DNA from: Microgenomates bacterium OLB22
Lineage (GTDB): Bacteria > Patescibacteriota > Microgenomatia > UBA1406 > HO2-37-13b
Direction: 5' to 3'
NCBI GenBank assembly: GCA_001567515.1
Contig: LLEV01000005.1
Location: forward strand, 54,952 to 118,951
Length of the DNA: 64,000 bases
The notes below the pieces were generated by a model. That model was not told where the DNA came from and did no database searches. It saw only the letters and a program-made list of their open reading frames with translations. Shown here in pieces: positions 21,786-46,994 of the stretch; the stretch's first letter is position 1, and each line of letters starts with the position of its first letter. The position numbers and the translations under genes are program-made.

Positions 21786-22712
21786 GCTTCCTTAAATCCA
21801 ACACCTAACTTGTGTAATTCAGCCTCAATGAGGTCTAGTGATTTACGCCCTACACCCTTCAGATCAACAAGTGTTTCTTTGCCTTGCTCAATAAGATCTC
21901 CTACTGTTTCAATGCCTTCTCGAAGGAGGGCGTTAATTACTCTGGTAGGAAGATCTAGTTCATCAATAATGGTTTCATAGACTTTTTTCGTCTATTTTCA
22001 CACTCCCGGTGATACCACCAGCTGCATCATCCTCTGAAAGGAGAGCACCATTAAACATATGAGAATAGAACTGTGCAAGGATAGCCGCTGACTGTTCCAA
22101 GGCGTCTTTTGGAGATACCGAACCATTAGTCCAGATCTCAAGAATTAATTTATCAAAATTAGAAACACGTCCTACACGAGCTGGTTCAACTCTAAATGTC
22201 ACCTTAGTAACAGGGCTAAAGATAGAATCAACAGCAATCATGCCATGCTCTTTCTTCTCTTTATCTTCTGATGAAGAGAAACCCAACCCTTTTTCGACTA
22301 TGAAGGTCAAATCAAGACTACCCTTAGCATCTGTGATCTCAGCGATATGATGATCTAAATTTACGACCTCAAGACCTGTTGCCTTGATATCTTTACCAGT
22401 CACACTCTTTGCTCCCTTAAGCGAGACTGATACCTCAAGTGGTTCTTTTGAATTGAGGACAAATTGAAGTTCCTTTAGATTCATGATCACCTCTAGCGCA
22501 GTCTCTTTTATTCCTTTCAGAGGACTGAAGACGTGAGGTACCCCGTTCATCTTAACATAGGTCACAGCAGCACCTTCTATAGACGAAAGAAGCACGCGGC
22601 GAAGAGCATTACCGAGACTGTGAGCATATCCATAGGGAAGTGGGCTCAATTCGAAAACACCATAGGTAGATGTATCGGTAACTTGTTTTGTAGTAAAGCT
22701 TGGTTTTAGCAT
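21782..22712 (-). CDS. rpoA: DNA-directed RNA polymerase alpha subunit, frame split between NTD and CTD at a T6 run 21983-21988
   Basis: 245-aa NTD ORF ends IDEKSL*; the next frame encodes the alpha-CTD ETIIDELDLPTRVINALLREGIETVGDLIEQGKETLVDLKGVGRKSLDLIEAEL; one base fewer gives continuous ...KIDEKVYETIIDEL... Confidence 0.9.
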
Positions 22713-23768: not shown

Positions 23769-24170
23769 TTACTTTTTTGCTGCTTGCTGAGCTCGTGCCA
23801 GATCTTCTTTCTTAAATGATCCAACAGTCTTCTTCTTTCCTTTTTTGGTACGAGCATTGGACTTGGTACGTTGACCATGAACTGGTAGACCATGTGTATG
23901 ACGACCTCCACGATAACTGCCAATCTCTCGAAGACGTTTGATGTTTTGCCTTATTTCCTCACGCAGATCACCTTCGACCTTGAGTGCCTCGAGCACATCC
24001 TGAAGTTTTCTTAGCACTGTTTCATCTACATCTTTTACCTTGGTATCTAATGAGATTTTCATCTGGTCAAGAGCTACTTTGGCTCGTGCGTTACCCACAC
24101 CATAGATGAGTGTAAGGGCATATGCCATGCGGCTTTCTTCGGGTAGATTGATTCCAAATAGTCTTTTCAT
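23769..24170 (-). CDS. rpsM: 30S ribosomal protein S13
   Basis: MKRLFGINLP...GQRTKSNARTKKG. Confidence 0.9.
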   Translation of the reverse strand: MKRLFGINLPEESRMAYALTLIYGVGNARAKVALDQMKISLDTKVKDVDETVLRKLQDVLEALKVEGDLREEIRQNIKRLREIGSYRGGRHTHGLPVHGQRTKSNARTKKGKKKTVGSFKKEDLARAQQAAKK

Positions 24171-24183
24171 AATGATATGGTGA

Positions 24184-24298
24184 TTATCCTTGTCTTTGTT
24201 TGTGCTTAGGATTTTTACACATCACAAAAATAGCTCCGCGCCTTTTAACAATGATGCACTCAGCACACATTTTTTTTATCCGATGCTCGAACTTTCAT
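24184..24298 (-). CDS. rpmJ: 50S ribosomal protein L36, frameshifted at an 8-T run 24270-24277
   Basis: With a 7-nt run the minus strand encodes [37 protein letters not shown] (zinc-ribbon L36); absent from the ORF track (short and split). Confidence 0.8.
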
Positions 24299-24316
24299 AA
24301 GTTATAACAATATGTT

Positions 24317-24544
24317 TCAAAAACGATAGACAATTCTTCCTCTATTGGGATCATATCGAGTAATCTCAATACTGACTTTATCCCCAGGAAGGATTTTTAT
24401 GTAATTTTTACGCATCTTACCTGACAAGTAGCAGATAATCACCTTACCACTATACTCGGGATCAAGCTGAACGCGAAACAGGGTATTTGGGAGACTCTCC
24501 ATTATTTCCCCTTTTACACGAATCACATCATCCTTCATAAACAA
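24317..24544 (-). CDS. infA: translation initiation factor IF-1
   Basis: S1-like IF-1, 75 aa ([17 protein letters not shown]...[15 protein letters not shown]). Confidence 0.9.
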
Positions 24545-24553
24545 TATATTGTA

Positions 24554-25309
24554 TCACAAACGTGTTAAAATAAAAGGCCCTTTCGCAGTAGCAGTTACGG
24601 TATCTTCAAAGCAGGCACTTACACTCCTATCTAATGTACGCAGTGACCAATTATCGTCCTCAAGAACTATCTTATCGGATGATTTGGCATAGATTACTTC
24701 TACAGCCAATGTCATCCCTTCTTCTATAACAGGAGTCTTTTCCCGTGCTCTCGATACATATCCTGGGATACTGGGATCTTCATGGAGCTTTTTCCCTACG
24801 CCATGCCCTGTCAGCTCACGTATTATACAATAACCAGCACTACTTATCGAGTCATAAATAGCTCTAGATATGTCACCAATATGATTGCCAAGCAGCACTT
24901 GTGAGATAGCCTTATCAAGTGTTTCTGACCCTATTTGTAAAAAAGTAGCGTGTTTTGGATCGATTGCATCTCCTACGATAAACGTTCGTGCACAGTCAGT
25001 ATGAAACCCTCTATAATAAGAGCCAATATCAAGCGCCACGATATCCCCATCGTTAATAATCCTATCTGAGGGTGGGGTATGAACTACTTGTTCGTTGATT
25101 GAGATACATATAGCATCATGATAGTGTGGGACCCTATAAAAGCTTGGCGTGCAGCCGTATTTTTTCATGCTGGCTACGACTAGGTCATCTACTTGGCGTG
25201 TCTTCATACCCGGGTGAATCTGGGGGACCACTTCATTGAAAATCGTAGCTAAGAGCATCCCCCCTTCTCTCATTATCTTGAGCTCATTAGCTGTTTTCTT
25301 GTAGATCAT
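24554..25309 (-). CDS. map: methionine aminopeptidase type I
   Basis: 251 aa, pita-bread fold metal ligands (DIGSYYRGFHTD, HGVG, LAVE). Confidence 0.85.
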   Translation of the reverse strand: MIYKKTANELKIMREGGMLLATIFNEVVPQIHPGMKTRQVDDLVVASMKKYGCTPSFYRVPHYHDAICISINEQVVHTPPSDRIINDGDIVALDIGSYYRGFHTDCARTFIVGDAIDPKHATFLQIGSETLDKAISQVLLGNHIGDISRAIYDSISSAGYCIIRELTGHGVGKKLHEDPSIPGYVSRAREKTPVIEEGMTLAVEVIYAKSSDKIVLEDDNWSLRTLDRSVSACFEDTVTATAKGPFILTRL

Positions 25310-25314
25310 AGATA

Positions 25315-25860
25315 CTAGGCAGAAGTCGCCCCCAATGCTTTGAGAATGGAGGCATGAATAGACTCAATCGAAGAAGTGCCATCTATTTGAATAAGTTTGT
25401 TGGCAACTCTGAAGACCTCTATAACAGGAGTAGTGACTTCTTTGAAGAGCTTAATCCTTTCATAGACGGCCGATAAACTTGTGTCATCTCGATCTTCAAC
25501 TCTACCAGCAAGACGCCATAATGCTTCTTTTTCATCTAATTCAATGTGGATAAGGTAGTCCAAACTGTCTAAAAATTCACGTGCCTGTCCTACCGTCCGT
25601 GGAAATCCATCTATAACAAATCCATTAGCGTAGTCTGGACCGGTTAGGTGCTGCTTCACAAACCTGATGGTGAATTCATCTGAAAGCAGTTGGCCAGCAT
25701 CGATTGCCTCTTTAACTTGTTTGGCTTCAGCGGTATCGCCTTCTGCAAAAGTTCTCAGGAGCTGACCTATTGAAAGATGAGGAATGCCCAACACGTTGGA
25801 AAGTAGTTTCGCCTGTGTTGTTTTGCCAGATCCTTGTATACCGAGTAATGACAGCCTCAT
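25315..25860 (-). CDS. adk: adenylate kinase (short form)
   Basis: P-loop LLGIQGSGKTTQAKLL, GFVIDGFPRTVGQA. Confidence 0.85.
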   Translation of the reverse strand: MRLSLLGIQGSGKTTQAKLLSNVLGIPHLSIGQLLRTFAEGDTAEAKQVKEAIDAGQLLSDEFTIRFVKQHLTGPDYANGFVIDGFPRTVGQAREFLDSLDYLIHIELDEKEALWRLAGRVEDRDDTSLSAVYERIKLFKEVTTPVIEVFRVANKLIQIDGTSSIESIHASILKALGATSA

Positions 25861-25864
25861 GTAA

Positions 25865-26044
25865 TTAGTGTAGCTTTTTCATCTCCTTATGGGGAGTATG
25901 TTTTTTACAAACAGAACAATATTTTGTCAGGTCAAGCTTATCAATCGTGTTTATCTTGTTTCTCTCGGTCACGTAGTTCTGCGATTTACATACACTACAT
26001 TGCAAACCAAAGAGTACTCGCGCACCTTTTTTCTTTTTTGCCAT
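25865..26044 (-). CDS. rpmG: 50S ribosomal protein L33 (zinc-ribbon type)
   Basis: Own translation of minus strand: MAKKKKGARVLFGLQCSVCKSQNYVTERNKINTIDKLDLTKYCSVCKKHTPHKEMKKLH, CxxC..CxxC L33 pattern; missed by the ORF track (59 aa). Confidence 0.75.
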   Translation of the reverse strand: MAKKKKGARVLFGLQCSVCKSQNYVTERNKINTIDKLDLTKYCSVCKKHTPHKEMKKLH

Positions 26045-26062
26045 AACTATAACAGTAACTTA

Positions 26063-27349
26063 TTATCTCTGAAGATTATCGTAACTTTTCATTACGAGTT
26101 GTGCTTCTATCAACTTAAATGTTTCCAGGACGACCGAAACTACGATAAGGATACCAGTACCTCCCACAACTATCTGACTTACGCCAGTCATCTTTGATAC
26201 GATAAACGGTAGAATTGCTATTATACCAAGAAATAGCGCTCCTGCACTAGTAATCTTATAGACCATAGTTCGTAGATACTGAACAGTCGAGGTACCTGGT
26301 CGAATCCCAGGGATGAAACCACCTTGCTTTTGTAACTGTTCAGCAATCTTATCTGGGGCAAAGAACAATACAGTGTAAAAGAATGTAAAAGCGATCACTA
26401 AGAAAAAGTACACTATGTTGTAGATATACCCTGTCGAGTTAAATATGTTCATGAGCCCCGAACCTATAGATACAAGTAGACTGTTGGGCGATTGACGCAA
26501 CATGTTTCCGATCATTTGGGGGAAAATTACAAATGAAACGGCAAAGATTATGGGCATGACTCCAGCCTGATTCAACTTAAGTGGCAGATAGTTTGCAGCT
26601 TGCTGGTACATCCTATTACCGCGTATCCTACGTGCATACTGCACAGGAATCCGACGTACGGACTCATTGATAAAGACGACTCCTGCAATAACCGCAACGA
26701 AAAGTAATACTATGAGGGCAGATGTAAAAGTCGACTCACCAGTAGATGTGCTGAAAGATTGTGCAAAAACTACAGGTATTCGAGCCACAATTCCTACAAA
26801 TATGAGCAAAGAAATGCCGTTACCGATACCGAACTCAGATATCAGTTCTCCAAACCACATAGCTATAAATGTTCCTGCCGTGATCGTGCTGACAAATCCG
26901 AGAAACTCAAAGAAGCTCAATTGAGTAAGGATACCCTGATTTTTGAGTAAAAAATACATGGCAACTGACTGAAGGATCGTTATTGGGACCGCTAGCATTC
27001 TCGTATACTGATTTATCTTATACTTGCCGTATTCACCTTCTTTTGAGAGTTCCTCAAAAGAAGGAATAATGATAGTCAATAACTGTGTGATGATAGAGGT
27101 AGTGATATACGGTCCGAGGCCAAGTGCCATGATAGAAAAGTTGACAAGAGTGCCCCCGGAGAAAATGTCGAGCAATGCAAAAAATTGATTTGAGGCAAAA
27201 AGCTCACGCATTCTATCGGTATCGATAACAGAGACAGGGATGAAAGCAAATATCCTGAATATCCCAATTAGCAAGAACGTGATAAGGATCTTTTTACGTA
27301 TTGCTGGATCTCTCCAGGCTAATTGTAGTTTACGTAATACTTCTTTCAT
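26063..27349 (-). CDS. secY: preprotein translocase subunit SecY
   Basis: 428 aa, 10-TM SecY. Confidence 0.9.
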   Translation of the reverse strand: MKEVLRKLQLAWRDPAIRKKILITFLLIGIFRIFAFIPVSVIDTDRMRELFASNQFFALLDIFSGGTLVNFSIMALGLGPYITTSIITQLLTIIIPSFEELSKEGEYGKYKINQYTRMLAVPITILQSVAMYFLLKNQGILTQLSFFEFLGFVSTITAGTFIAMWFGELISEFGIGNGISLLIFVGIVARIPVVFAQSFSTSTGESTFTSALIVLLFVAVIAGVVFINESVRRIPVQYARRIRGNRMYQQAANYLPLKLNQAGVMPIIFAVSFVIFPQMIGNMLRQSPNSLLVSIGSGLMNIFNSTGYIYNIVYFFLVIAFTFFYTVLFFAPDKIAEQLQKQGGFIPGIRPGTSTVQYLRTMVYKITSAGALFLGIIAILPFIVSKMTGVSQIVVGGTGILIVVSVVLETFKLIEAQLVMKSYDNLQR

Positions 27350-27780
27350 GACAGTATGGTTCCACCAGCTTTAGTGATCAGCTCAGCGGCACCTTTTGTC
27401 ACACGAACTTGTATCTTAACCGCATTAGGGACTTCGCCTTGAGCATACAATTTTACTGAGAGACCTTTTCGTGCTGGCAAAAAACCTTTTGCATACAATG
27501 TCCGTACTGATACCTCTTCATCTTTATCAAAAAAACGAAGTACCCGGGTTGGAAGGGCAATAATATCTTGTACAGATTTGTTTTTCGATTTACCTCGTAG
27601 ATAAGGAAATTTCTTTACCAATCTATTTTGCCCCCCCTCAAAATGCGTAGGGATTTTTTCACGAGCTCCTTGATGTCTGCTGGTGCCGTGACCAGACTTA
27701 GATCCTTTACCACTACCGTCACCACGGCCAAGCCTCTTTTTTCTTCTGTCGATGATAGCGGGTAATGTATGTATTTGCAT
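27346..27780 (-). CDS. rplO: 50S ribosomal protein L15
   Basis: Gly/Arg-rich N-terminus GRGDGSGKGSKSGHG...; follows rpsE directly with no rpmD (L30) between. Confidence 0.9.
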   Translation of the reverse strand: MQIHTLPAIIDRRKKRLGRGDGSGKGSKSGHGTSRHQGAREKIPTHFEGGQNRLVKKFPYLRGKSKNKSVQDIIALPTRVLRFFDKDEEVSVRTLYAKGFLPARKGLSVKLYAQGEVPNAVKIQVRVTKGAAELITKAGGTILS

Positions 27781-27804
27781 AGTTCTATAAATTAGACAAT
27801 TTTA

Positions 27805-28270
27805 CTAGCTTCTATTTTTTTCCTTTAACTTCTGTAGTGCCTTTACCACAGCATAGGTGTTTGTTGTCTTATTACGCGTACCTATGATCTTGCCTGAAGC
27901 GTTAGATACTCCAGCCACTGTCAGCACAGATCTCAGAACACTTCCCACTTTCAATCCCGCGCCCTCTGGAGCTGGCTTGAGGATGAGTCGTGCTGATTTG
28001 TATTTTATCTTAATTTCATGTGAAAGTGTGGTCCCGTGACGCTCTATTGTAAATAATTTTTTTACGTGCCTGAGCTATAGATTTTTGTATAGCTTTGGGG
28101 ACTTCTTTTGCTCGTCCAAGTCCAATTCCTAGCTTTCCATTATGATCACCTACAACTACTAGGGCTGTAAAACTGATGGCGCTACCACCGGTAGTCTTTT
28201 TGGAAACTCTTCGGATGAGTAATACTTTCTCATCTAAATCTTTTTTTTCTGCTTCAATAAATTCTGCCAT
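27805..28270 (-). CDS. rpsE: 30S ribosomal protein S5, frameshifted at a T7 run 28057-28063
   Basis: ORF 28016..28354 has only the N-terminal half; with a 6-nt run the frame continues ...ILKPAPEGAGLKVGSVLRSVLTVAGVSNASGKIIGTRNKTTNTYAVVKALQKLK, the canonical S5 C-terminus, ending at TAG 27805-27807. Confidence 0.9.
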
Positions 28271-28274
28271 ATGA

Positions 28275-28625
28275 TTATAAAGAAATCTCAACACTTCTAA
28301 GACCCTCGGCAAGTGCTTTGACCCGACCACTATAACGATAATAACGCCTGTCAAAGACTACTGCTGTTAGGCCCTTTTCCCTAAGCTTTTTGGCAAGCTC
28401 CTGACCTACAGCAAATGCCCGTTCGGTTTTATTTTTTGCGTTCTTTACACTATCGTCATAAGCAGCGGCCAGGGTAATACCTTTTGAGTCATCAATGGCT
28501 TGTGCGCTAATATGTATATGTGATCGATATACAGCTACTCTAGGTCTGGTTGGTGAACCTATGACCTGAGCTCGCACTCTGCTTATGATGCGTTTTCTTC
28601 TTTTATGTAGTGATAGTGTGGACAT
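28275..28625 (-). CDS. rplR: 50S ribosomal protein L18
   Basis: 116 aa, L18 fold. Confidence 0.9.
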   Translation of the reverse strand: MSTLSLHKRRKRIISRVRAQVIGSPTRPRVAVYRSHIHISAQAIDDSKGITLAAAYDDSVKNAKNKTERAFAVGQELAKKLREKGLTAVVFDRRYYRYSGRVKALAEGLRSVEISL

Positions 28626-28642
28626 ATGCTAGTTAGTTAGTG

Positions 28643-29185
28643 TTAACCTGTCTTTGCCTTTTTACCAGGCTTCAACTTGATGTATTCTCCTTCATATCTG
28701 ATCCCCTTACCTTTATATGCATCCGGCTTGCGGATCTTGCGGATCTTGTAGGCAACTTCGCCGACAAGTTGTTTGTCAATACCTGTGACAGTGACAATTC
28801 TATTGTTATCAACGGCATAGGAAACACCGTCTACTTTTGCGAAGACTACTGGGTGCGAGTATCCAACATCAAAAACAAGATCCTGGCCCTGCATACGGGC
28901 TTTATATCCAGTGCCCACAACTTCCAAATTCTTCTTCCAATATTCTTTAACTCCTATTACTGCATTCTGGATGAGTGAACGATAAAGACCATGAAGTGCT
29001 TTGACACCTTTCTCCTCCTTTGAGCGGGCAACTGAAACAATGCCATCAGAAACAGTAACCGAAATATAACGAGGAAGGGTAAAGCTCAAGGTCCCCTGCT
29101 GCCCCACAACAGACACAGTATTATCAACCATATTAACGGATACTCCATCCCCAATCGTTATTTGTTTTTGTCCTATTTTTGACAT
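28643..29185 (-). CDS. rplF: 50S ribosomal protein L6
   Basis: 180 aa; contains an in-frame 9-nt tandem duplication (KIRKIR) at 28731-28748. Confidence 0.9.
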   Translation of the reverse strand: MSKIGQKQITIGDGVSVNMVDNTVSVVGQQGTLSFTLPRYISVTVSDGIVSVARSKEEKGVKALHGLYRSLIQNAVIGVKEYWKKNLEVVGTGYKARMQGQDLVFDVGYSHPVVFAKVDGVSYAVDNNRIVTVTGIDKQLVGEVAYKIRKIRKPDAYKGKGIRYEGEYIKLKPGKKAKTG

Positions 29186-29213
29186 AGTTGTTTTATATAG
29201 TGGGCCAATCTAA

Positions 29214-29594
29214 CTACCATATGGCAAACAGCAACTCGCCTCCGACTTTCTCTTTTCGAGCCTGCTTATCAGTCATGATCCCTCTTGAAGTGGAGATCAA
29301 TGCAATCCCAAGTCCTCCTGTCACTGGGCGAATCTCCTTTACCCCGCGATACACTCGTCTTCCTGGCTTTGAAAATAACTTCACCTCACTAATAGCCGGT
29401 TTATGACCTTTGTAAGAAAGAGTAACGCTGATAGGCTCCATGATATTTTCAGGAACATCAAACTCTTGGATATATCCATGCTTCTTCAAGAGCTCAAGCG
29501 AACGGACAGTTCTGATAGAACGTTTCACATCTACTACCTCTTTACCTGCTAGGTAGCCATTTTTTATTCTGATGATAAAATCTATAAGTGTCAT
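29214..29594 (-). CDS. rpsH: 30S ribosomal protein S8
   Basis: 126 aa S8. Confidence 0.9.
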   Translation of the reverse strand: MTLIDFIIRIKNGYLAGKEVVDVKRSIRTVRSLELLKKHGYIQEFDVPENIMEPISVTLSYKGHKPAISEVKLFSKPGRRVYRGVKEIRPVTGGLGIALISTSRGIMTDKQARKEKVGGELLFAIW

Positions 29595-29608
29595 ATGCCA
29601 AGAAATAA

Positions 29609-29893
29609 TTAGGTCTTATCCATAGTCCTCTTAGTAACCTTACCGTGTCCTCTAAATGTACGAGTCTTTGCAAACTCTCCCACCCTATGTCCGACCATAG
29701 CCTCGCTGATGTATACCTCGACAAATTTATTTCCGGTGTGCACACTCAGGCGCTGACCGACAAAATCTGGAGAGATCTGACTAGCACGAGCCCACGTCTT
29801 GATTGGGGTATTAGATCCGGTTTGTTTTTGTACAAGGACTTTTTTCAAAAGCTTTTCATCTATATAAGGTCCTTTTTTTAGTGAACGTGACAT
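29609..29893 (-). CDS. rpsS: 30S ribosomal protein S19, at a non-canonical position between rpsZ and rpsH
   Basis: [19 protein letters not shown]...[52 protein letters not shown] matches S19 end to end; start taken at the Met aligned with the canonical N-terminus. Confidence 0.85.
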
Positions 29894-29900
29894 ACTTTTT

Positions 29901-30086
29901 TTACCAAGAGATTTTTTTAACACCAGGGATCTCCCCCTTTAATGCTTTTTCTCGAAAACAAATGCGACACAGACCGAATCGTCGCATATATCCACGAGCT
30001 CTACCACATAACGAGCAACGATTTACATCGCGTGTTGTAAACTTTTGTTTTTTCTGGAATTTAACTACATCTGATAATTTAGGCAT
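29901..30086 (-). CDS. rpsZ: 30S ribosomal protein S14 type Z (zinc-binding)
   Basis: 61-aa core [16 protein letters not shown]...[38 protein letters not shown] with CxxC..CxxC. Confidence 0.85.
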
Positions 30087-30093
30087 ATTACAG

Positions 30094-30630
30094 TCAGTCA
30101 ATAAATGGCATCTTGAACGCTTCAAGAAGAGCTTTAGCAGCGCTATCGCTTTTTGCAGAAGTCACAATAGTGATCTCCAATCCTCTAACTTTGTCTATTT
30201 TATCATATTCTATCTCAGGAAAGAGGGTCTGATCGCTTAAACCGATATTTAGGTTTCCCATCCCGTCAAAAGCTTTTGAAGAAAGGCCCTTAAAATCTCT
30301 AATACGTGGGAGCACAATCGAGATGAGCTTTTCCAAAAAGTCGTATGCACGTTGTCCTCGAAGCGTCACTTTTACGCCGATAGGTAGTCCTTTTCTAATC
30401 TTAAAAGCGGATACAGATTTACGAGCCTTGCATATGAGTGGCTGTTGGCCTGTGATAATCTTGATATCTTCAACGACTGCTTGGACTGCATTTTTGTTCA
30501 TTGATGCCTCACCTACTCCAACATTTACTACGATCTTTTCGAGCTTTGGAATAAGACTCACATTCGAGAAAGCGAGATCTTTCTGCAATTGTTTACTGAT
30601 TGTGGTTTGATAGTGATTTAAGAGTGACAT
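30094..30630 (-). CDS. rplE: 50S ribosomal protein L5
   Basis: L5 fold; start taken at MSLLNHYQ, which leaves a 5-nt gap to rplX. Confidence 0.9.
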
Positions 30631-30635
30631 GGTGG

Positions 30636-30953
30636 TTATTTTTTGCGAGCTATAGGTGCTCCACATTTTTTACATACTCTAGACTTGACAGCGCCATCGA
30701 TCTCATATCCTACTCGGGTCGGCTTCTTACATTTGCCGCAGTAGAGTTGGACCTTAGATCCATGCAAAGCTCGCGGGATCTCTACGATACCACCAGTTGG
30801 AAATTGCTCCGACTTAGGAACATGCTTTTTATAGAGGTTAAGACCCGGTATAAGTACCTTGCCACTCAAGGAATACACCTTGGTGATAGCACCTTGCTTT
30901 CCTTTGTCTTTACCTACCATGATCTGCACTAGATCTCCTGTATGAAGTTTCAT
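30636..30953 (-). CDS. rplX: 50S ribosomal protein L24 with C-terminal zinc-ribbon-like CxxC..CxxC
   Basis: KOW motif GKDKGKQG; C-terminus LYCGKCKKPTRVGYEIDGAVKSRVCKKCGAPI replaces the usual L24 tail. Confidence 0.85.
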   Translation of the reverse strand: MKLHTGDLVQIMVGKDKGKQGAITKVYSLSGKVLIPGLNLYKKHVPKSEQFPTGGIVEIPRALHGSKVQLYCGKCKKPTRVGYEIDGAVKSRVCKKCGAPIARKK

Positions 30954-30955
30954 AG

Positions 30956-31330
30956 TTAATATATTTCTGCTGCCAAACTAGCAATCTTGTTATATCCGGC
31001 TGTTTTTACTTCTCGTGCTAAAGGGCCAAAAAAGCGAGACCCCTTTGGTTCTTTAGATGTTCTACTTTCAAGGAGTACACAGGCATTGTCATCAAAGCGT
31101 ACATAACTCCCGTCGTCACGCTTAGATTCTTTACGGGTCCGCACCACTACAGCATGCGCCACATCTCCTTTTTTTACCTGCCCGTTTGGGTCAGCCTTCT
31201 TCACAACTACCGTGACAACATCAGATATGCGGGCTATCTTCTTGTTCCCTTTACCTGGCACACCAATAACATGAGCTGTAATAGCCCCACTATTGTCTGC
31301 CACTTGTAATACTGATCGAAGTTGAACCAT
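30956..31330 (-). CDS. rplN: 50S ribosomal protein L14
   Basis: 124 aa L14. Confidence 0.9.
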   Translation of the reverse strand: MVQLRSVLQVADNSGAITAHVIGVPGKGNKKIARISDVVTVVVKKADPNGQVKKGDVAHAVVVRTRKESKRDDGSYVRFDDNACVLLESRTSKEPKGSRFFGPLAREVKTAGYNKIASLAAEIY

Positions 31331-31335
31331 AGTTA

Positions 31336-31572
31336 TTACTTTGTAACGTTAGCTACAACGATGAAATGTTTGTGTCGAGACAGAGGACGCGTTTCCTTGA
31401 TCTGGACGCTATCTCCTTCTTTCATCTCTACCCCATTTGATCCTGCTAGATACTTCTTGTGCCTCTTGATTGTCTTTTCATACAGCTTATGCTGAAAGGC
31501 TCTTTCGACCCTTACCACAACTGTATCCGTCATTTTCATGGAGACTACTGTACCGGTTAGTGTTTTTGCCAT
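31336..31572 (-). CDS. rpsQ: 30S ribosomal protein S17
   Basis: 78 aa S17. Confidence 0.9.
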   Translation of the reverse strand: MAKTLTGTVVSMKMTDTVVVRVERAFQHKLYEKTIKRHKKYLAGSNGVEMKEGDSVQIKETRPLSRHKHFIVVANVTK

Positions 31573-31578
31573 AATTAA

Positions 31579-31785
31579 TTAGTGTGTGCTACTAGATGAT
31601 CTCATTAGAGTCGCGATGACCGCAATTTTTCTTTTCAAGATGCCATAGGCATTTGTATCTTTTTGTGTATGCGCAAGCATACCCTTTTTTAGCTCTACAG
31701 CCTTCTGTCTTAGGGCTTCTAGTTCCTTCTGTAAACCTCCTAAATCCTTCTGTGCTTGTTCTTGCTTGTATTTACTGTGTTTCAT
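31579..31785 (-). CDS. rpmC: 50S ribosomal protein L29
   Basis: 68 aa helical L29. Confidence 0.8.
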   Translation of the reverse strand: MKHSKYKQEQAQKDLGGLQKELEALRQKAVELKKGMLAHTQKDTNAYGILKRKIAVIATLMRSSSSTH

Positions 31786-32192
31786 AGGTCCTTAGATACA
31801 AAGCGCGCCCTAACAGGGAGCTTTGATGAAATGTTCTTAAAAACTTTACGAGCATTGGGCTCATCTAGACCAGTTAACTCAAATAACATTCTTCCAGGAG
31901 TTACAGATGCGACGTAGTGCGAAACTTCACCCTTGCCTCCACCCATAGTTACCTCTGGTGGTTTCTTGGTGTAAGGTTTGTCAGGAAATATTCGAATCCA
32001 GAATTTTCCTATCTTGCGAGTTGCACGTGATAGTATAACACGACAAGCCTCAATTTGGCGATCAGTTATCCAACCAGGTTCAGTAGTTCGGATGCCATAG
32101 TCGCCAAAGGAGACTTCAACACCCTTAGTTGCTACTTTTCGCCAGGTCCCACGGAAATGGCGTCTATGTTTCATTCTCTTAGGTTGCAACAT
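31782..32192 (-). CDS. rplP: 50S ribosomal protein L16
   Basis: MLQPKRMKHRRHFRG... Confidence 0.9.
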   Translation of the reverse strand: MLQPKRMKHRRHFRGTWRKVATKGVEVSFGDYGIRTTEPGWITDRQIEACRVILSRATRKIGKFWIRIFPDKPYTKKPPEVTMGGGKGEVSHYVASVTPGRMLFELTGLDEPNARKVFKNISSKLPVRARFVSKDL

Positions 32193-32195
32193 GTC

Positions 32196-32837
32196 TTATC
32201 TGGCAATCCAAACTTTTATACCAACGTATCCTGATTTTGTGAGAGCGGGGTAACGAGCAAAGTCGATATCCTCGCGAAGGGTAGATGTGGAGACTGTTCC
32301 CTTATGCGACTTCTCAATGCGACTAATTACAGCACCACCAATACGCCCGCCCAGCTGAATTTTCACGCCTTTTGCACCTGACTCCATTACTTTATCCATA
32401 GTTAGATGCACAACTCTCCTATGTGGAAGATTGTGTACGAGCTTACCTGCAATATCTGCAGCTACATATTGAGCATTAAGAAATGGCTGTTTTACTGGCT
32501 CAATCTTAAAGTCGGTCTTGATCTTTGTATTTGTCTTGCTGGTCTTGTTAATTGTTTCATCGATGAACTTCTTTACATCCTCAAGGCCCTTTCCACCTCG
32601 ACCGATGATCATCCCCGGCTTTACGGCATGGATAATAATAGTAATCTTATTTATGGCACGCTCTATCTCAACTTGTGTGACAGCTGCAAAGTTAAACTTT
32701 TTCATGATCCCTTCTCTGATCTTTATGTCTTCAAGCAAAAAGGTCCTAAATACTTTTTTATCAGGGAAAAGCCATCGTGATTCCCACGTTTTGTTTACTC
32801 CCAGTCTATATCCATGCGGATTTACTTTTTGTCCCAT
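32196..32837 (-). CDS. rpsC: 30S ribosomal protein S3
   Basis: MGQKVNPHGYRLG..., KH domain. Confidence 0.9.
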   Translation of the reverse strand: MGQKVNPHGYRLGVNKTWESRWLFPDKKVFRTFLLEDIKIREGIMKKFNFAAVTQVEIERAINKITIIIHAVKPGMIIGRGGKGLEDVKKFIDETINKTSKTNTKIKTDFKIEPVKQPFLNAQYVAADIAGKLVHNLPHRRVVHLTMDKVMESGAKGVKIQLGGRIGGAVISRIEKSHKGTVSTSTLREDIDFARYPALTKSGYVGIKVWIAR

Positions 32838-32838
32838 A

Positions 32839-33312
32839 TTATTTGGTCTTGCTCTTGCTAATTTTTGATACTGCTTTTGCTATTTTTATTGGTTTTTCTC
32901 CGGTAACTGATTTTTCTACTTTCTGTTCAACCCTTGGTACTACTGTGATCTCAGATCCTTTAGTTTTGGCTTCTCCTTTGGAAGGAGCTACAGTCAACAT
33001 AATAGTAATATGTGATGTCTTACGAACATATCTTTTAGCTGATCCCTTACTACCAGCTCTGAAACGCTTAAATCCGGGCCCTTCATCTACACGTACTTCC
33101 TTAAAAGCTAGGGTCTGAACCTCAAGTTGCCTCTGCTTGGCACTATCCAGGGCCGCTAGGATACTCTTTCGAAAAAATTTTGCAGCACGATCTTGCATCA
33201 AAGCCAAACGCTTGGTTGCCACAACAGGATGCATACGCTTGATAGCTGCACGTAAAATACGTAGTTTCCTAGGAGCAATATGTATATACCGAGTTGATGT
33301 CTTGATTTCCAT
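32839..33312 (-). CDS. rplV: 50S ribosomal protein L22 with Lys-rich C-terminal extension
   Basis: ARYIHIAPRKLRIL core; follows rplB directly with no S19 between. Confidence 0.9.
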   Translation of the reverse strand: MEIKTSTRYIHIAPRKLRILRAAIKRMHPVVATKRLALMQDRAAKFFRKSILAALDSAKQRQLEVQTLAFKEVRVDEGPGFKRFRAGSKGSAKRYVRKTSHITIMLTVAPSKGEAKTKGSEITVVPRVEQKVEKSVTGEKPIKIAKAVSKISKSKTK

Positions 33313-33319
33313 ACCTTAT

Positions 33320-34084
33320 TTAAGATCGACCTTGTCTCTTTGTCTTGATAATAAACTTATCTGACCACTTTGGTCGTCGTGTTTTCTTACCCATTGCTGG
33401 TTTACCCCATGGGGTTTTTGGATGAGATCCAGTACCACTCCGACCCTCTCCTCCTCCATGTGGATGAGATTTTGGATTTTGGGCAACACCTCTGACGGAG
33501 GGACGGATCCCGAGCCACCTTTTTCTTCCTGCTTTACCAAGATGAGTAAGTTTATGTTGACTATTGGCGATTCTACCTATTGTAGCATAACAATCGCCCA
33601 GAACCCTTCGAATTTCACGTGAAGGCATTCTGATATCTACATAGTCACCATCTTTGGCTGAGACCACTGCTGATGAGCCAGCACTTTTGACCATCTGGCC
33701 TCCTTGACCGGAGTATAGTTCGATGTTATGTATTTCTGTCCCAAGGGGGATATTCTTGATAGGCATCGCATTCCCTGGTCTGATATCCGCTTGAGTAGAA
33801 GACATTACTACATCGCCCACGGCTAGTCCTTCGGGCACGATTATATACCTCTTCTCACCATCGGCATACTCCAGAAGAGCAATTGGAGAGGTACGATTTG
33901 GATCATATTGTATATCAATTATAGTTGCTGATATGTCTTTCTTGTCCCTTTTCCAATCTATCACTCGATAAAAGCGCTTATGTCTACCCCCTTGATGACG
34001 AATAGAAATACTACCAGAGTTATCTCTTCCGGATCTCTTCTTTAGGATTTTCTTCAAAGACTTTGGTACTACTGATGATTTCAT
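33320..34084 (-). CDS. rplB: 50S ribosomal protein L2
   Basis: C-terminal [25 protein letters not shown]... Confidence 0.9.
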
Positions 34085-34145
34085 AGGTATTACTGATTAA
34101 ATAATTCGATGGTGCCCTCCTTAAGAGTGACATAGGCAATTTTTT

Positions 34146-34403
34146 CTATCTGGCTGCTTTACAAGCAGACCTTTTCGTCCTTTTCTCTTTTTCTTTGCCT
34201 TTTCGGACGACGACTCTAACAGCACCAACCTTCACCTTATATAGCAAAGCAAGTGCTTGAGAAACATGTTGCTTTGTCGAAGAAAGAGCCACCTCAAAAG
34301 CAACCACCCTCGTATCTTTCTTAGAGACGCTCTTTTCTGTGATGATTGGTTTGATGATATAGTCGGTGAGTAGCATATTAGATTCGTTGTAATAGACTTT
34401 CAA
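34146..34403 (-). CDS. rplW: 50S ribosomal protein L23
   Basis: 85 aa, DYIIKPIITEKSV. Confidence 0.85.
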   Translation of the reverse strand: MKVYYNESNMLLTDYIIKPIITEKSVSKKDTRVVAFEVALSSTKQHVSQALALLYKVKVGAVRVVVRKGKEKEKRTKRSACKAAR

Positions 34404-35052
34404 TACTTGCCGGAGTCATGAGTAAACAAGTATGAGTGATAACATCGTAAGCATTGAGACTATCAGTATGCACAGGACTAACCCGCGCCATATTGCGAGC
34501 GGATAGACTAATAGCACTATCTTGCGAGGTACCCACTAACAACACACGACGAGGGTCAATATCTTTAACTGCAGTCATAAAGGTGGCAAAGTTCTTAGTC
34601 TTACCCTTAAAATCAATTCCCGTGTCCAGAACTCGAATTTGTTTGTCGATCACTTTTTGACTCAGTACGGCCATCATGACTTTCTTTAGCTGCTTTTTAT
34701 TGATTAATAGTTCTCTCTTGAGTGCTCTAGGACCATGAGTCACTCCACCTCCTACAAATAGCGAAGCTTTCCTGTTTCCGTGACGAGCATTTCCTGTTCC
34801 TTTTTGGCGGTAGATCTTACGGCTTGAACCAGCGACCTCTCCACGCGTCTTTGCTTCTCTACTCTGAGGATGCTGATTGCTCATATACACACGCATATAC
34901 TGAGCTATCAAGGCATCAGATGCACTCTGCGCAAAGATTCTTTCCGGAAGTTCAATCTCACGAACAACTGAGCCTGTACTATCAATAACAGGTACCATTA
35001 GCCCTGCTTTTTTTGCTTTCTTCGTAGTAGTAGTTTTTACATTTTTTTCCAT
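34378..35052 (-). CDS. rplD: 50S ribosomal protein L4
   Basis: 224 aa L4. Confidence 0.9.
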   Translation of the reverse strand: MEKNVKTTTTKKAKKAGLMVPVIDSTGSVVREIELPERIFAQSASDALIAQYMRVYMSNQHPQSREAKTRGEVAGSSRKIYRQKGTGNARHGNRKASLFVGGGVTHGPRALKRELLINKKQLKKVMMAVLSQKVIDKQIRVLDTGIDFKGKTKNFATFMTAVKDIDPRRVLLVGTSQDSAISLSARNMARVSPVHTDSLNAYDVITHTCLLMTPASIESLLQRI

Positions 35053-35124
35053 GATCTTTTCGTATATTATTATTCTTCTGAAGTTGAATCTTGCACCTCT
35101 TCAACTACCTGCTCAGCAACTGGC

Positions 35125-35841
35125 TCAGCATCTTGCTCGATCACCGCAGCAGGAGCATCTTGACGCTTGTGAGCTTGCTTTTTTTGACGAACGTATCAAA
35201 ATGACGCCTTGCTGTGGCCCTGGGATAAGTCCCTTGACAAGAACTTCGTCTTCGGTGAGACCAACAATTCGTAGATGCTTGATAGTCACAGTCTCCACAC
35301 CCATATTACCAGCCATCTTCTTCCCCTTATATACTCTACCAGGAGTTGCGGATTGGCCAATAGAACCAGGGGCACGGAGCCTATCTGACTGGCCATGTGT
35401 CTTCGGACCTCCAGCGAAGCCATGTCTTTTTACCACACCCTGAAATCCTTTACCTTTTGAAGTCGCCTGGACATCTACTAACTGCCCTTTATAAAAAAGC
35501 GTTGATGGGACCAGTCTTGCACCTATCACTAGATCGACATCACCAAGATGAAGCGATTTCCCATCTTCAGATACTTCAAAAGAGTCAATTCTGATCTCTC
35601 GGATATGACGAAGCGGCTCTTTTACATTGTAGCTCTTGAGCTGACCCTGCTGGGTCTTTCGGATCCTCTTCGCCTCATCATATGCGACTATCAAGGCATT
35701 ATACCCATCTTTCTGTGCAATTCGATAGCCAAGGAGGATACAATCATGTGCCTTTACCGAAGTTACAGGCATACGAATACCGTCCTCGTCTATATATTGT
35801 TCTGTCTTATTTTTATATCCAATTATTGTTTGCATGTTCAA
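35125..35841 (-). CDS. rplC: 50S ribosomal protein L3 (C-terminal 20 aa possibly mis-framed at a T7 run 35178-35184)
   Basis: L3 core through ...GVILIRSSKK; annotated tail ASSQASRCSCCGDRARC is odd; a 6-nt run would give an acidic tail ending at 35079. Confidence 0.85.
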   Translation of the reverse strand: MNMQTIIGYKNKTEQYIDEDGIRMPVTSVKAHDCILLGYRIAQKDGYNALIVAYDEAKRIRKTQQGQLKSYNVKEPLRHIREIRIDSFEVSEDGKSLHLGDVDLVIGARLVPSTLFYKGQLVDVQATSKGKGFQGVVKRHGFAGGPKTHGQSDRLRAPGSIGQSATPGRVYKGKKMAGNMGVETVTIKHLRIVGLTEDEVLVKGLIPGPQQGVILIRSSKKASSQASRCSCCGDRARC

Positions 35842-35948
35842 AAAAAAAAGATCCCGATAGAGATCAGTACTGATCTTACACGTCTGTATTTTGCATCGGT
35901 GATTATAAAGAGAAATGACTGTTAAGTCAATCCCGCTTCATAATAGAC

Positions 35949-36260
35949 TTAAATCATTTTTACTTCGACGCTGACACCTGCTGGAAGATCCAAATGTGTT
36001 AGGGCGTCGATCGTCTGATTAGTAGGATTTACTACGTCTAACAACCTCTTATGTATTTTCAAACCAAAATATTCACGGCTATCCTTATCTACAAAAGTAG
36101 ACTTTGTCACTACATATTTTTCAATTCTAGTAGGTAGAGGAATAGGTCCAAGGAAAGATGCCCCTGTCTTCGTGGCTGTATCAACAAGTCTTTGGCACAC
36201 ATCATCTAGTATGAGGTGATCAAAAGACTTGAGTCTTATTCGTATTTTTCCTTTTGGCAT
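35949..36260 (-). CDS. rpsJ: 30S ribosomal protein S10
   Basis: 103 aa S10. Confidence 0.9.
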
Positions 36261-36261
36261 G

Positions 36262-36300
36262 GTGCTTGATAATAATGAACCGGGCCGCCGAGGCGGCCCG
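36262..36300 (-). terminator. GC-rich hairpin (intrinsic terminator/attenuator) between tuf and rpsJ
   Basis: CGGGCCGCC / GGCGGCCCG stem at 36281-36300 followed on the minus strand by UUCAUUAUUAUC; lies immediately 5' of rpsJ. Confidence 0.5.
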
Positions 36301-36309
36301 AGTCAATTT

Positions 36310-37494
36310 TTACTTATGTATCTTGGTAACTACTCCTGCTCCGACAGTTTTACCACCTTCACGAAGAGCAAATTTTGTTCCCTCTTCAAGTGCGATTGGG
36401 TAAATGAGCTTAGCATTAACTTTAATATTGTCCCCTGGCATAACCATCTCCACACCTGCAGGTAGTTCAACTTCACCAGTCACATCAGTGGTACGGATAT
36501 AGAATTGTGGTCTGTATCCAGTAAAGAAAGGACTGTGTCTACCACCTTCTTCCTTGTTGAGGATATAGACTTCTGCTTCAAACTCGGTATGAGGAGTTAC
36601 TGAACCTGGCTTGGCAATGACTTGACCACGCTCCACATCATCCTTTTCAATACCTCGGAGAAGAAGGCCAACGTTATCACCGGCTTGGCCACTATCAAGA
36701 GTCTTACGGAACATTTCAATTCCAGTTGTTACTGTCTTAACGGTCTCCTTGGCTAGTCCTATGATCTCGACCTCATCATTTACTTTGAGGACACCTCTAT
36801 CAACTCTACCTGTTACAACAGTACCTCTACCTTTGATGGTAAAGACATCTTCAACAGGCATGAGGAATGGCTTATCGATGTCTCTCTCTGGATCAGGGAC
36901 GAATGAATCAACTGCAGCCATAAGCTCTTCAATAGCCTTTTCTGCTTCGGGATCCCCCTCTAGAGCTTTGAGTGCTGAACCCTTGATGATAGGGGTAGTA
37001 TCACCTGGATACTCATATTTATTAAGAAGATCACGTATCTCCATCTCAACAAGTTCCAAAATCTCAGGATCTGCAACCATGTCTGTCTTATTCATGAATA
37101 CGACGATAGCAGGAACACCGACTTGTCGTGAAAGAAGAATATGTTCTCGAGTCTGTGGCATAGGGCCATCAGGAGCTGAAACAACGAGGATAGCCCCGTC
37201 CATCTGCGCAGCACCAGTGATCATGTTTTTAATGTAATCCGCATGTCCTGGGGCGTCGATGTGGGCATAATGCCTTTTTTCAGTCTCATACTCTTGGTGA
37301 GAAATGTTGATGGTGACTCCACGAGCTCTTTCCTCTGGAGCACTATCAATCTGATCATAGCTTCGGGCTTTTGCCAAGCCCTTTTTTGCAAGAACGGTAG
37401 TAATTGCAGATGTAAGTGTAGTTTTACCATGGTCAACGTGACCAATAGTACCTATGTTTACGTGAGGTTTTGTACGTTGAAATGTGTCTGCCAT
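36310..37494 (-). CDS. tuf: elongation factor Tu
   Basis: 394 aa, [23 protein letters not shown]. Confidence 0.95.
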
Positions 37495-37600: not shown

Positions 37601-38545
37601 TTATTCTACTTTTTTTGCATAGCTGGAAGATATCCAGCCAAAGAGCCCTTTCTTATATTCAATCTTATACCACCCAGTTTGCTGACCAGCAATAACGTAC
37701 TTCTCCCCCGGATTTACCTTAGCAGCCTCAGATGCTGTTGTAGAAGGCTCAACTCTCACTCTCAACCAACCTGTGGGGGTATCCAATATCTCAATGGAAC
37801 TTCCACCCGTAGATGCTGAAGCTGTGGTTTGTGGCGTAGGAGTTGTTGACCTTGTGGGAGTCGGGCTTATTGACTTAGCTGATGAGGTAGCAACTTGAAG
37901 TCCGGCAGACCCAGATGCAGCAGATAGCTCGTCGATCTTCTTCACTGAAGAGTCTACTGCTAGCTTGAAATAAGCTATTACCTCATAACCCTTTTCTACA
38001 CGTACTTTCTTCTGTTTTCTGAAAAATCCGGATGATACTATCGTGATCTCATGGATGCCTTGCTCAGCTTCAACTGATTGTAATGGCGATATACCTACCT
38101 CTTCACCATCTATAAGTACTAAAGCCCCCTTAGGATCAGTATCAACACTAATGAGTCCTTTATCACGAGCGTTATCCGATTTTCTTACAGTCAGTATGAT
38201 GCCTGAAGATGAGTTAGCATCTAGACCAAGCTCTTGTTCAACCTCTGTGCGAGCATTGGAATACACATCAATGGTTCCCTCCCAAGGGATAGCGTTGGTA
38301 CTTGTATCTACAGGCTCAAGTCTCAAGGTGTATGATCCCACTGGATAGGTCTTTTCTAGTGACGTTGTCCCAAGTTCCTTACCATTTATTATGACCTTAG
38401 CTAAGGGGGAAGAAAGTACTTTCAAAACGCCATTCTGAGATCGACTCTTGAGAAAGAAAAAAGATAGTACAATGGCTGTTAAGAAACCTGCAACCAGGAT
38501 AAGTAGGAATACTATCTTTGATTTCATGGGCATATCATAATCCAA
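37601..38545 (-). CDS. membrane-anchored PEGA-domain / C-terminal SH3b-domain protein
   Basis: N-terminal TM; two PEGA-like units (LAKVIINGKELGTTS..., ALVLIDGEEVGISPL...); Thr/Pro/Ser linker; C-terminal GWLRVR...GWYKIEYKKGLFGWISSSY typical of bacterial SH3. Confidence 0.55.
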   Translation of the reverse strand: MDYDMPMKSKIVFLLILVAGFLTAIVLSFFFLKSRSQNGVLKVLSSPLAKVIINGKELGTTSLEKTYPVGSYTLRLEPVDTSTNAIPWEGTIDVYSNARTEVEQELGLDANSSSGIILTVRKSDNARDKGLISVDTDPKGALVLIDGEEVGISPLQSVEAEQGIHEITIVSSGFFRKQKKVRVEKGYEVIAYFKLAVDSSVKKIDELSAASGSAGLQVATSSAKSISPTPTRSTTPTPQTTASASTGGSSIEILDTPTGWLRVRVEPSTTASEAAKVNPGEKYVIAGQQTGWYKIEYKKGLFGWISSSYAKKVE

Positions 38546-38588
38546 TAGGACACGTCAGACAACATTACTAACCATTACTATATATATC

Positions 38589-39866
38589 ATGGCAGCGAAA
38601 AAAAGCACTTTTGTATGTGAAAACTGCGGAGAGCACCACCTCCAGTGGTACGGTAGATGTCCCAGCTGTAATGCATGGAACAGTGTGGTCGAGAATACCG
38701 ATCCCTCAAAACGATCAGGGGGTATCAAGGCTGCTCAGACTATCAAAGCCTCACAAGCTGCAACAATCTACAATAAAATGCATACCGCTATCGGCGAGTT
38801 CGATGATGTCCTCAACGGAGGCTTCGTCCCTGGACAAACAATTTTGTTGACCGGCGAGCCAGGAATAGGTAAATCCAGTCTTGTAGTCCAGGTTTGTGCC
38901 GCTTATCCAAGTTATTATATCGCTGGAGAGGAATCGGTCAATCAGATAACAGCCCGTCTTGATAGGCTAAAGCTCCAAAAAAATGCTTTTACCTTTACTG
39001 AGGAGACCAACATTGAGGCAATCAGAGAAAGTCTCGATATCCATAAGGATAGCTTTAGGCTTATCATAGTTGATTCCATTCAAACGGTATGGTCGCGAGA
39101 ATCCTCAGGTGCCGCTGGGACAGTGGGGCAGATCAATGCTTGTACACATGCTTTGATCGAATTTGCAAAAGAACACGACAAAGTGGTCATAATAGTTGGA
39201 CATGTCACAAAGTCCGGCGATATAGCAGGGCCAAAAACGCTTGAGCACTATGTTGATACTGTCGTCCATTTTGAAGGAGACAAAAATCAGGGATATCGTA
39301 TCTTGCGTTGTAAGAAAAATAGATTTGGTACAACAGATGAGATTGGTATTTTTGAGATGAGAGAAGATGGACTTCATCAACATTCTTCATCGACTCTCTT
39401 AGACGACTTTAGCCCAGCTCCTGGCAAGATCATCGCTGGGACACTCGAAGGTCGGAGAGCACTTTTTTTGGAAATACAGACTTTAGTCGTAGACACGAAG
39501 TTTACAAATCCCCGTCGCGTATGTGTAGGCTATGATACCAACAAGATTTTGATGCTATTGGCAGTACTACAAAAGCATCTCGCCATTCATCTAGAGCAAA
39601 AAGACATCTACATCTCAATCATGGGAGGAGTTGAGATAAAAAACCCACTTGTAGAGCTCGGGATCATCGCATCAGTTCTATCTTCCTACCGAAACAAACC
39701 GTTCCCTGCGACATTCTGCTTTTCGGGGGAGGTTGACCTTTTGGGAAGAATTAGGACACGGTTTAGATTAGATAATCTTGTAAAACAGGCTGCAAAATTA
39801 CCTACTCCCCAACTCATATCAGCTGAGAAAGTTTCCAATGTCCTCGAGCTTTTCAAATTGCTTTAG
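38589..39866 (+). CDS. radA: DNA repair protein RadA/Sms
   Basis: N-terminal C4 zinc finger (CENCGE...CPSCNAW), Walker A GEPGIGKSSL, KNRFG motif, Lon-like C-terminal domain. Confidence 0.9.
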   Translation: MAAKKSTFVCENCGEHHLQWYGRCPSCNAWNSVVENTDPSKRSGGIKAAQTIKASQAATIYNKMHTAIGEFDDVLNGGFVPGQTILLTGEPGIGKSSLVVQVCAAYPSYYIAGEESVNQITARLDRLKLQKNAFTFTEETNIEAIRESLDIHKDSFRLIIVDSIQTVWSRESSGAAGTVGQINACTHALIEFAKEHDKVVIIVGHVTKSGDIAGPKTLEHYVDTVVHFEGDKNQGYRILRCKKNRFGTTDEIGIFEMREDGLHQHSSSTLLDDFSPAPGKIIAGTLEGRRALFLEIQTLVVDTKFTNPRRVCVGYDTNKILMLLAVLQKHLAIHLEQKDIYISIMGGVEIKNPLVELGIIASVLSSYRNKPFPATFCFSGEVDLLGRIRTRFRLDNLVKQAAKLPTPQLISAEKVSNVLELFKLL

Positions 39867-39877
39867 GCGGGCGCAAA

Positions 39878-40942: not shown

Positions 40943-40983
40943 AGGTCGTTATAGCAATCCAACTAAAAAGCCACATGTTCTTA

Positions 40984-41319
40984 TCATACAATACGTAGAA
41001 GAATCTGGATAAATAGTAATGTTGTAAAAATCATGAGTGATATGTTCATATACATAAATATGGACTGATATAGGGAATTTTCCTTGAGCAGGAACTTAAC
41101 AAGTACTTGATTTAGAACGATCGAAAGATACAGACTCAATGGGATGATGAAGATATGGAGTAAGGGAGCAATATGCTTTTCCTTCTCAATATAGCTGTAA
41201 TAGAGTGGTATCTCGGGCGGCAAGCGCAGAAAAAGAAGAAAGAATGCAGCAAACATAGTAGTACTACAGACAGTAAGAAGTAGGAATATGTTTCTTTTGG
41301 ACAAAACAGGGGTTTGCAT
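40984..41319 (-). CDS. hypothetical small integral membrane protein
   Basis: 111 aa, 3 predicted TM helices. Confidence 0.3.
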   Translation of the reverse strand: MQTPVLSKRNIFLLLTVCSTTMFAAFFLLFLRLPPEIPLYYSYIEKEKHIAPLLHIFIIPLSLYLSIVLNQVLVKFLLKENSLYQSIFMYMNISLMIFTTLLFIQILLRIV

Positions 41320-41325
41320 AGTTTA

Positions 41326-42639: not shown

Positions 42640-42678
42640 ATCCTATTATGCAATAGTTTTTTGTTTAGTTTTGTATAG

Positions 42679-42707
42679 TTGACAATACTTACAGCTCTCT
42701 CTACAAT
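42679..42707 (+). promoter_or_regulatory. sigma70-like promoter TTGACA-17-TACAAT for the SOD gene (near-leaderless)
   Basis: TTGACA 42679-42684, TACAAT 42702-42707, ATG at 42716. Confidence 0.5.
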
Positions 42708-42715
42708 GAGGCCGA

Positions 42716-43333: not shown

Positions 43334-43336
43334 CAC

Positions 43337-44483: not shown

Positions 44484-44490
44484 GCACAAG

Positions 44491-45499: not shown

Positions 45500-45501
45500 G
45501 T

Positions 45502-46964: not shown

Positions 46965-46994
46965 GAACTGTTTGCGATATTAGACATATAGTAT

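Follow-up and report, generated by a model that had tools for sequence, protein, structure and literature searches.

How the gene of ribosomal protein S19 can come to lie between those of S14 and S8 is the question raised by a stretch of 64,000 nucleotides from Microgenomates bacterium OLB22, which is the whole of the DNA analysed here and is referred to below as the window. The set L2-S19-L22-S3, from which the gene is missing in this genome, belongs to the most highly conserved gene order on record and is found in Bacteria, Archaea and plastids alike. For the 14-gene S10-spc core, the gene order has been reported to be conserved in Archaea and Bacteria, one archaeal cluster being quoted as L3-L4-L23-L2-S19-L22-S3-... 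(PMC10833476). As laid out in the following, the rearrangement is real, clade-wide and single in origin, and the gene that moved is native. Very probably, the native rpsS underwent one ancient same-strand transposition within the S10-spc super-operon, which was fixed in the ancestor of a large Microgenomates clade comprising OLB22 and most of the genomes with the label Candidatus Roizmanbacteria and was never reversed.

In the window, rpsS (uS19) is encoded on the minus strand at 29609..29893 as a protein of 94 aa beginning with the ATG at 29893. The protein matches Pfam PF00203 over its full length (E = 3e-30; 104.3 bits, the cut-off being 27; profile positions 1-81 of 81), has 100% identity to S19 of Microgenomates bacterium OLB22 and is 63-80% identical to the S19 proteins of other Microgenomates, and tblastn finds just one S19 in the 64-kb window. 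The open reading frame itself starts further upstream with a GTG at 29923 and would overlap S14 from there; this is not the real start, and was rejected because the S19 proteins of the fetched relatives are 94 aa long, except for two loci with 93 aa. Directly upstream lies rpsN/rpsZ (uS14; 29901..30086, minus strand; PF00253, 86.7 bits), a 61-aa protein of the Zn-ribbon type in whose translation the CxxC...CxxC pattern can be read, and directly downstream lies rpsH (uS8; 29214..29594, minus strand; PF00410, 125.7 bits). The S14-S19 spacer (29894..29900, minus strand) is 7 nt long, AAAAAGT, and has no Shine-Dalgarno motif, and the S19-S8 spacer (29595..29608, minus strand) measures 14 nt. At the vacated site, the ancestral upstream neighbour of S19, rplB (uL2; 33320..34084, minus strand; Pfam L2_N and L2_C), with its TAA stop codon at 33322-33320, is now followed directly by rplV (uL22; 32839..33312, minus strand; PF00237, 68.0 bits), which encodes 157 aa from an ATG at 33312. 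The junction between the two (33313..33319, minus strand) consists of the 7 nt ATAAGGT without a remnant of S19 and is therefore too short to hold the gene. An earlier note on this DNA had claimed that rplB ends at 33320 and rplV starts at 33312 with no room for S19, and that a full-length S19 is encoded instead at 29609..29893 between S14 and S8; the 7-nt spacer bears out the former statement, and the coordinates together with the Pfam match agree with the latter. The arrangement is far beyond what chance would produce, and errors of gene calling do not account for it.

The gene is part of a co-oriented cluster delineated by open reading frames and Pfam matches at 23769..37494 on the minus strand, with the order tuf-S10-L3-L4-L23-L2-L22-...-S14-S19-S8-L6-L18-S5-L15-SecY-L33-adk-map-infA-S13, which begins with tuf (37494-36310) and ends with S13 (24170-23769), both likewise on the minus strand. 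The standard set of ribosomal proteins and secY is present on the same strand and tightly packed, as expected of an S10-spc-alpha cluster, and the canonical orders L2-S19-L22-S3 and S14-S8 are absent. Between the old and the new position of S19 lies the block with which it has been swapped, L22-S3-L16-L29-S17-L14-L24-L5-S14 (29901..33312, minus strand; identified from open reading frames and Pfam), which is termed the ten-gene block here. The remaining genes of the cluster are confirmed by Pfam with the exception of L29, which is assigned by position and by homology to the annotated neighbours in the loci L082 and L084: the 68-aa open reading frame in this position (31579-31785, minus strand) has no Pfam match at E <= 0.001, its positional equivalents in L082 and L084 carry PF00831, and it is a divergent L29. 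No open reading frame for L30 is found between S5, the C-terminal part of which ends near 27817, and L15, which starts at 27780; the absence of L30 is a known trait of CPR bacteria (Tsurumaki preprint). Two genes of the window are split. In rpsE (S5; 27817-28243, minus strand) the reading is distributed over two frames, with the break near 28052-28062, where seven A's follow one another (CGTAAAAAAATT); with six A's instead of seven, ARKKLFTIERHG... is restored, and the S5 proteins of relatives are intact, with 151-161 aa and both domains, so the split is probably a homopolymer indel error of this metagenome-assembled genome (MAG). In rpoA (21791-22712, minus strand) there are again two frames, with the break near 21991-22050 close to an A6 run (GACGAAAAAAGT), and in the alignment with the 307-aa RpoA of a relative, residues 1-220 fall in one frame and residues 241-307 in another, which is likely a second indel error. 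The base-level accuracy of the assembly is therefore unreliable at homopolymers. Further upstream, rpoB-rpoC-S12-S7-fusA (58457-48211, minus strand) lies ~10.7 kb away from tuf-S10; the sequence at 37601-48189 is occupied by unrelated genes on both strands, including those of a PEGA/SH3 protein, a RadA-like ATPase and a glycosyltransferase, and the str and S10 parts are therefore disconnected here.

The distribution of the arrangement was followed in the 80 closest relatives from a species-representative genome collection, 80 metagenome contigs and three contigs with the closest S19 proteins, and the gene order of each locus was determined by tblastn with the cluster proteins of the window itself. 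Among the 80 relatives from the genome collection, 36 loci have the relocated and 44 the canonical order, and the metagenome and Logan contigs contribute 30 relocated and 53 canonical loci. Over all 165 loci, the window included, S14-S19-S8 is found in 68, and L2-S19-L22 together with S14-S8 in 97; after identical sequences were collapsed, 66 relocated loci (the window and 65 others) stand against 89 canonical ones, with no ambiguous locus. In the relocated loci L2 adjoins L22 wherever both are present, and tblastn detects no second S19 in any of the 165 loci within ~20 kb around S19. The same relocated order is obtained for L082-L084 from separate gene calls with precomputed Pfam labels. Tight, clean junctions are the rule in the clade, with medians of 3.5 nt for L2-L22 (range -4 to 38) and 6 nt for S14-S19, and the S19-S8 junction, with a median of 14 nt, is slightly longer than the S14-S8 junction of canonical loci, with a median of 8 nt. 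The relocated genomes that carry a name are mostly 'Candidatus Roizmanbacteria'. Many MAG records (TPA) whose ribosomal-protein clusters are typical of Microgenomates, among them L004, L007 and L013, are titled 'uncultured Gammaproteobacteria' or 'Pseudomonadales', and L062 is titled 'Acidiferrales'; these genomes nest among Microgenomates in ribosomal-protein trees, and the labels thus look like placeholders or errors.

Phylogenetically, the loci with the relocated gene form one group. In neighbour-joining trees made from 19 concatenated proteins of the same cluster, with S19 left out, the relocated genomes are monophyletic in 100/100 bootstraps (70 taxa, 3319 columns) and in 50/50 bootstraps (126 taxa). 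Their sister group, consisting of L005/L087, L037 and L106, which are likewise labelled Roizmanbacteria, has the canonical order and is joined to the clade in 100/100 and 50/50 bootstraps, respectively, and the window represents the earliest-diverging relocated lineage in 78/100. Because every outgroup is canonical, the most parsimonious history is one relocation on the clade's stem and no reversal; the order is a derived character shared by the entire clade and not confined to a single genome. A second change in the cluster, the insertion of L33 behind SecY, has a clade distribution identical to that of the S19 move. In the window rpmG (bL33, Zn type; 25865..26044, minus strand; PF00471, 67.2 bits) is situated between secY and adk, and L33 directly follows SecY in 41/41 loci with relocated S19 (for example at 11303-11476 of the relocated-order relative L082) and in 0/34 others (0/32 canonical and 0/2 sister loci).

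With respect to the mechanism, S19 has in effect exchanged places with the L22-to-S14 block, turning the canonical order into L2/L22...S14/S19/S8. As judged from the 66 relocated and 89 canonical distinct loci, the exchange concerns adjacent blocks on the same strand and involves neither inversion nor foreign DNA. We infer that it proceeded by duplication followed by complementary loss, which offers the simplest courses, two in number: the segment from S19 to S14 might have been duplicated in tandem, after which the first S19 and the second copy of the L22-to-S14 block would have been lost, or a copy of S19 might have been inserted at the S14/S8 junction, with subsequent loss of the original. 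Among the 165 loci there is no duplicate S19, no pseudogene and no remnant at the L2/L22 junction, and the spacers are too short to carry scars; since intermediates are thus lacking, duplication and loss, though the likely route, is not separable from others. We further infer that the change was selectively near-neutral, because both the operon membership of the gene and its stoichiometric expression are preserved, and that the new order was retained because the cluster rarely rearranges.

The spacing of the genes is informative as to expression. Given spacers of 7 nt towards S14 and 14 nt towards S8, S19 most likely continues to be transcribed together with the genes that it formerly adjoined, to be produced in proportion to its partner proteins, and to be translated by coupling or re-initiation. 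A consensus scan reveals no convincing internal terminator or promoter in the cluster, the matches being at chance level (38, with 33.7 expected from shuffles). One promoter-like match of 10/12 positions extends across the S19-S8 junction (29601-29572); it was rejected, as transcription would begin within S8 and the number of matches as a whole is at chance level. The whole window has 0 Rfam matches to ribosomal-protein leaders or other RNA elements. Two structures not in Rfam are seen near the beginning of the cluster, namely a strong GC-rich hairpin of 9 bp between tuf and S10 (36280-36301, minus strand), and, in the S10-L3 spacer, which is unusually long with 107 nt, a sigma-70-like promoter match of 11/12 positions and a hairpin followed by T10 (35850-35930, minus strand). 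These could represent an attenuator or an internal promoter of the cluster.

The lack of a Shine-Dalgarno motif in front of S19 is shared by most of its neighbours. Counted over the cluster genes of the window and of the loci L002-L164, Shine-Dalgarno 4-mers are found upstream of 10% of these genes in the clade, 8% in the sister group and 5% in the window, compared with 50% in other Microgenomates; with a within-gene control of 12-15%, both clade and sister group are at or below the control. These frequencies suggest a loss of Shine-Dalgarno-dependent initiation at the level of the lineage, and given that the sister group has no such motifs either, the loss would predate the S19 move. Any tight junction should suffice for a gene that does not depend on a Shine-Dalgarno motif of its own, and a link between the loss and the move can be drawn on this basis, which is speculative.

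Several other explanations have to be weighed against a single transposition of the native gene, one of which is that a mis-join or a collapsed repeat in a single MAG has misplaced S19. The base-level errors of this MAG, in which S5 and rpoA are each frameshift-split at a poly-A run, speak for such an artefact, but an indel in a homopolymer cannot relocate a gene, the genes at both junctions meet cleanly and in frame, and window positions 31047-29599 are matched with 100% identity by a 1449-bp Logan contig that was assembled from a different sequencing run, SRR28716338. This contig extends from the end of L14 through L24, L5, S14 and S19 and ends 10 nt past S19; it thus covers the S14-S19 joint, and the S19-S8 and L2-L22 joints are supported by the relatives. 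The same order is carried by the 65 other distinct loci, which come from many projects and assemblers and include contigs of up to ~600 kb (487-604 kb among them), and the probability of an artefact is next to nil. In the earlier note the locus had been read as a local change of gene order within the S10-spc cluster, with a comparison of synteny in related genomes proposed as a check and a mis-join named as what would overturn the reading; the relatives share S14-S19-S8 with L2 and L22 adjacent, the order recurs in those 65 loci, and together with the identical contig they exclude the mis-join. Nothing was found in favour of the idea that S19 jumped to the S14/S8 junction several times independently, the junction being a hotspot; the upstream genes of the cluster recover the monophyly of the relocated genomes in just 11/30 bootstraps, compared with 27/30 for the L22-S14 block and 30/30 for the downstream genes. 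Monophyly is nevertheless obtained from the complete data set and from each of the three partitions, 0/89 distinct canonical loci outside the clade show S14-S19-S8, and the L33 insertion is distributed in exactly the same way, which makes recurrent relocation highly improbable. A further possibility is horizontal transfer, in which a foreign S19 would have settled at the S14/S8 junction before the native copy was lost from its slot between L2 and L22. The end state of such a displacement would be identical, the exchange of cluster genes for distant homologues is documented by Brandis 2021 (PMC8046335), and the S19 tree is poorly resolved because the protein has only 94 aa. In that tree, most relocated sequences nevertheless group together, adjacent to the sequences of the canonical sister group, and the divergence of S19 is as the other cluster proteins predict, the ratio of the S19 distance to that of the concatenate being 0.54 for relocated-versus-canonical and 0.52 for canonical-versus-canonical pairs; a comparison of relocated with canonical S19 proteins yields no clade-diagnostic residues. 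The S19 sequences thus track the organism tree, as expected for a native gene that moved once, in the ancestor of the clade, and a foreign origin is judged very unlikely; displacement by a donor of the same lineage would in any case be practically equivalent to duplication.

Less remote from the data, if still unlikely, is a reading in which the move was selected for the dosage, timing or regulation of S19, be it through control of the spc or S8 type or through adjacency to the 30S-head protein S14, and possibly in connection with the loss of Shine-Dalgarno motifs. Throughout a deep clade (ribosomal-protein distance ~0.53) no reversal of the order is indeed seen, it coincides with L33 after SecY, the lineage had already lost its Shine-Dalgarno motifs, S19 and S14 are both proteins of the 3'-head domain (PMC3575805), and the evolution of S19 is somewhat accelerated in the clade. 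When pairs of equal divergence in the other cluster proteins are compared, S19 distances are ~25% larger within the clade than among canonical genomes (0.222 vs 0.178, 0.278 vs 0.216 and 0.292 vs 0.231) and converge at saturation; as the pairs are not independent, the faster divergence is taken only as a hint of changed constraint, and it could hint at a move that was not entirely neutral. On the other side, a neutral change in a rarely rearranging cluster would be retained as well, the window holds no ribosomal-protein leader or Rfam element, the E. coli L4 and S8 operators are described as narrowly distributed (PMC3616713), and the sister group is devoid of Shine-Dalgarno motifs and yet has the canonical order. 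S19 is moreover an early, rate-limiting binder of the head, the pre-binding of which speeds the other proteins of the 3' domain (PMC3575805), and is now encoded after S3 and S14, so that the order is opposite to what a matching of gene order to assembly order would predict. In a related proposal, the ancestor would have undergone a burst of super-operon reorganisation, with S19 entering the spc part and L33 arriving behind SecY, enabled or favoured by the earlier loss of Shine-Dalgarno-dependent initiation. Were this improbable scenario true, L2-S19-L22 would elsewhere be held together by constraints of translation initiation and coupling, not by needs of assembly or interaction; at its new site S19 would come under other conditions of regulation or assembly, and selection would preserve them.

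Under the preferred reading, a single and near-neutral transposition of the native gene, the case is a rare genomic change within the most conserved gene cluster and constitutes no new mechanism or system. A deep, species-rich clade in which this adjacency is broken amounts to a natural experiment: it shows that the position of S19 within the operon is dispensable provided that the gene remains in the polycistron, and it counters the idea that gene order mirrors the order of 30S assembly. For systematics, S14-S19-S8 together with L33 after SecY offers a rare-genomic-change marker that delimits the Roizmanbacteria-related clade, and it cautions against relying on the canonical order of the 16 syntenic ribosomal-protein genes in binning, curation and marker-gene pipelines. 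The genomes were released some time ago, and their annotations show the arrangement; in the literature on S19/rpsS gene order, on ribosomal-protein synteny in CPR/Patescibacteria and on OLB22, no paper was found that describes the S14-S19-S8 order, and the words 'gene order' and 'operon' are absent from the Tsurumaki preprint, a detailed study of CPR ribosomal proteins.

Compared with the canonical S10-spc-alpha cluster of the E. coli / B. subtilis type, the cluster of the window is alike in gene content, in its confinement to one strand, in its tight packing and in the order of all other genes, and differs in that S19 lies between S14 and S8, L30 is absent, L33 follows SecY and Shine-Dalgarno motifs are lacking; by the operon definitions of E. 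coli, S19 has left the S10 operon and joined the spc operon. Changes of gene order by tandem duplication and random loss have been described for animal mitochondrial genomes. The present case resembles these in being a same-strand transposition of adjacent blocks without inversion or foreign DNA, and differs from them in that no duplicated intermediates or pseudogenes are seen and that it took place in a polycistronic operon of a bacterium, in which essential genes have to remain expressed at each intermediate step. In the Gammaproteobacteria and Bacilli surveyed by Brandis 2021 (PMC8046335), the changes of the cluster are deletions (rpmJ, rpsN, rplJL and secY being lost or moved out), swaps of paralogues and insertions between operons, duplication followed by deletion was proposed as the general route by which genes leave their slot in the cluster, and rpsS is absent from the main text. 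These cases and the present one have in common the alteration of an otherwise extremely stable cluster, with the difference that S19 stays in the cluster and on the same strand, at another internal junction. In relation to the universal set L2-S19-L22-S3 of Archaea, Bacteria and plastids, finally, the genes of the window are clear orthologues, and the clade breaks the adjacencies L2-S19 and S19-L22, whereas all other adjacencies survive.
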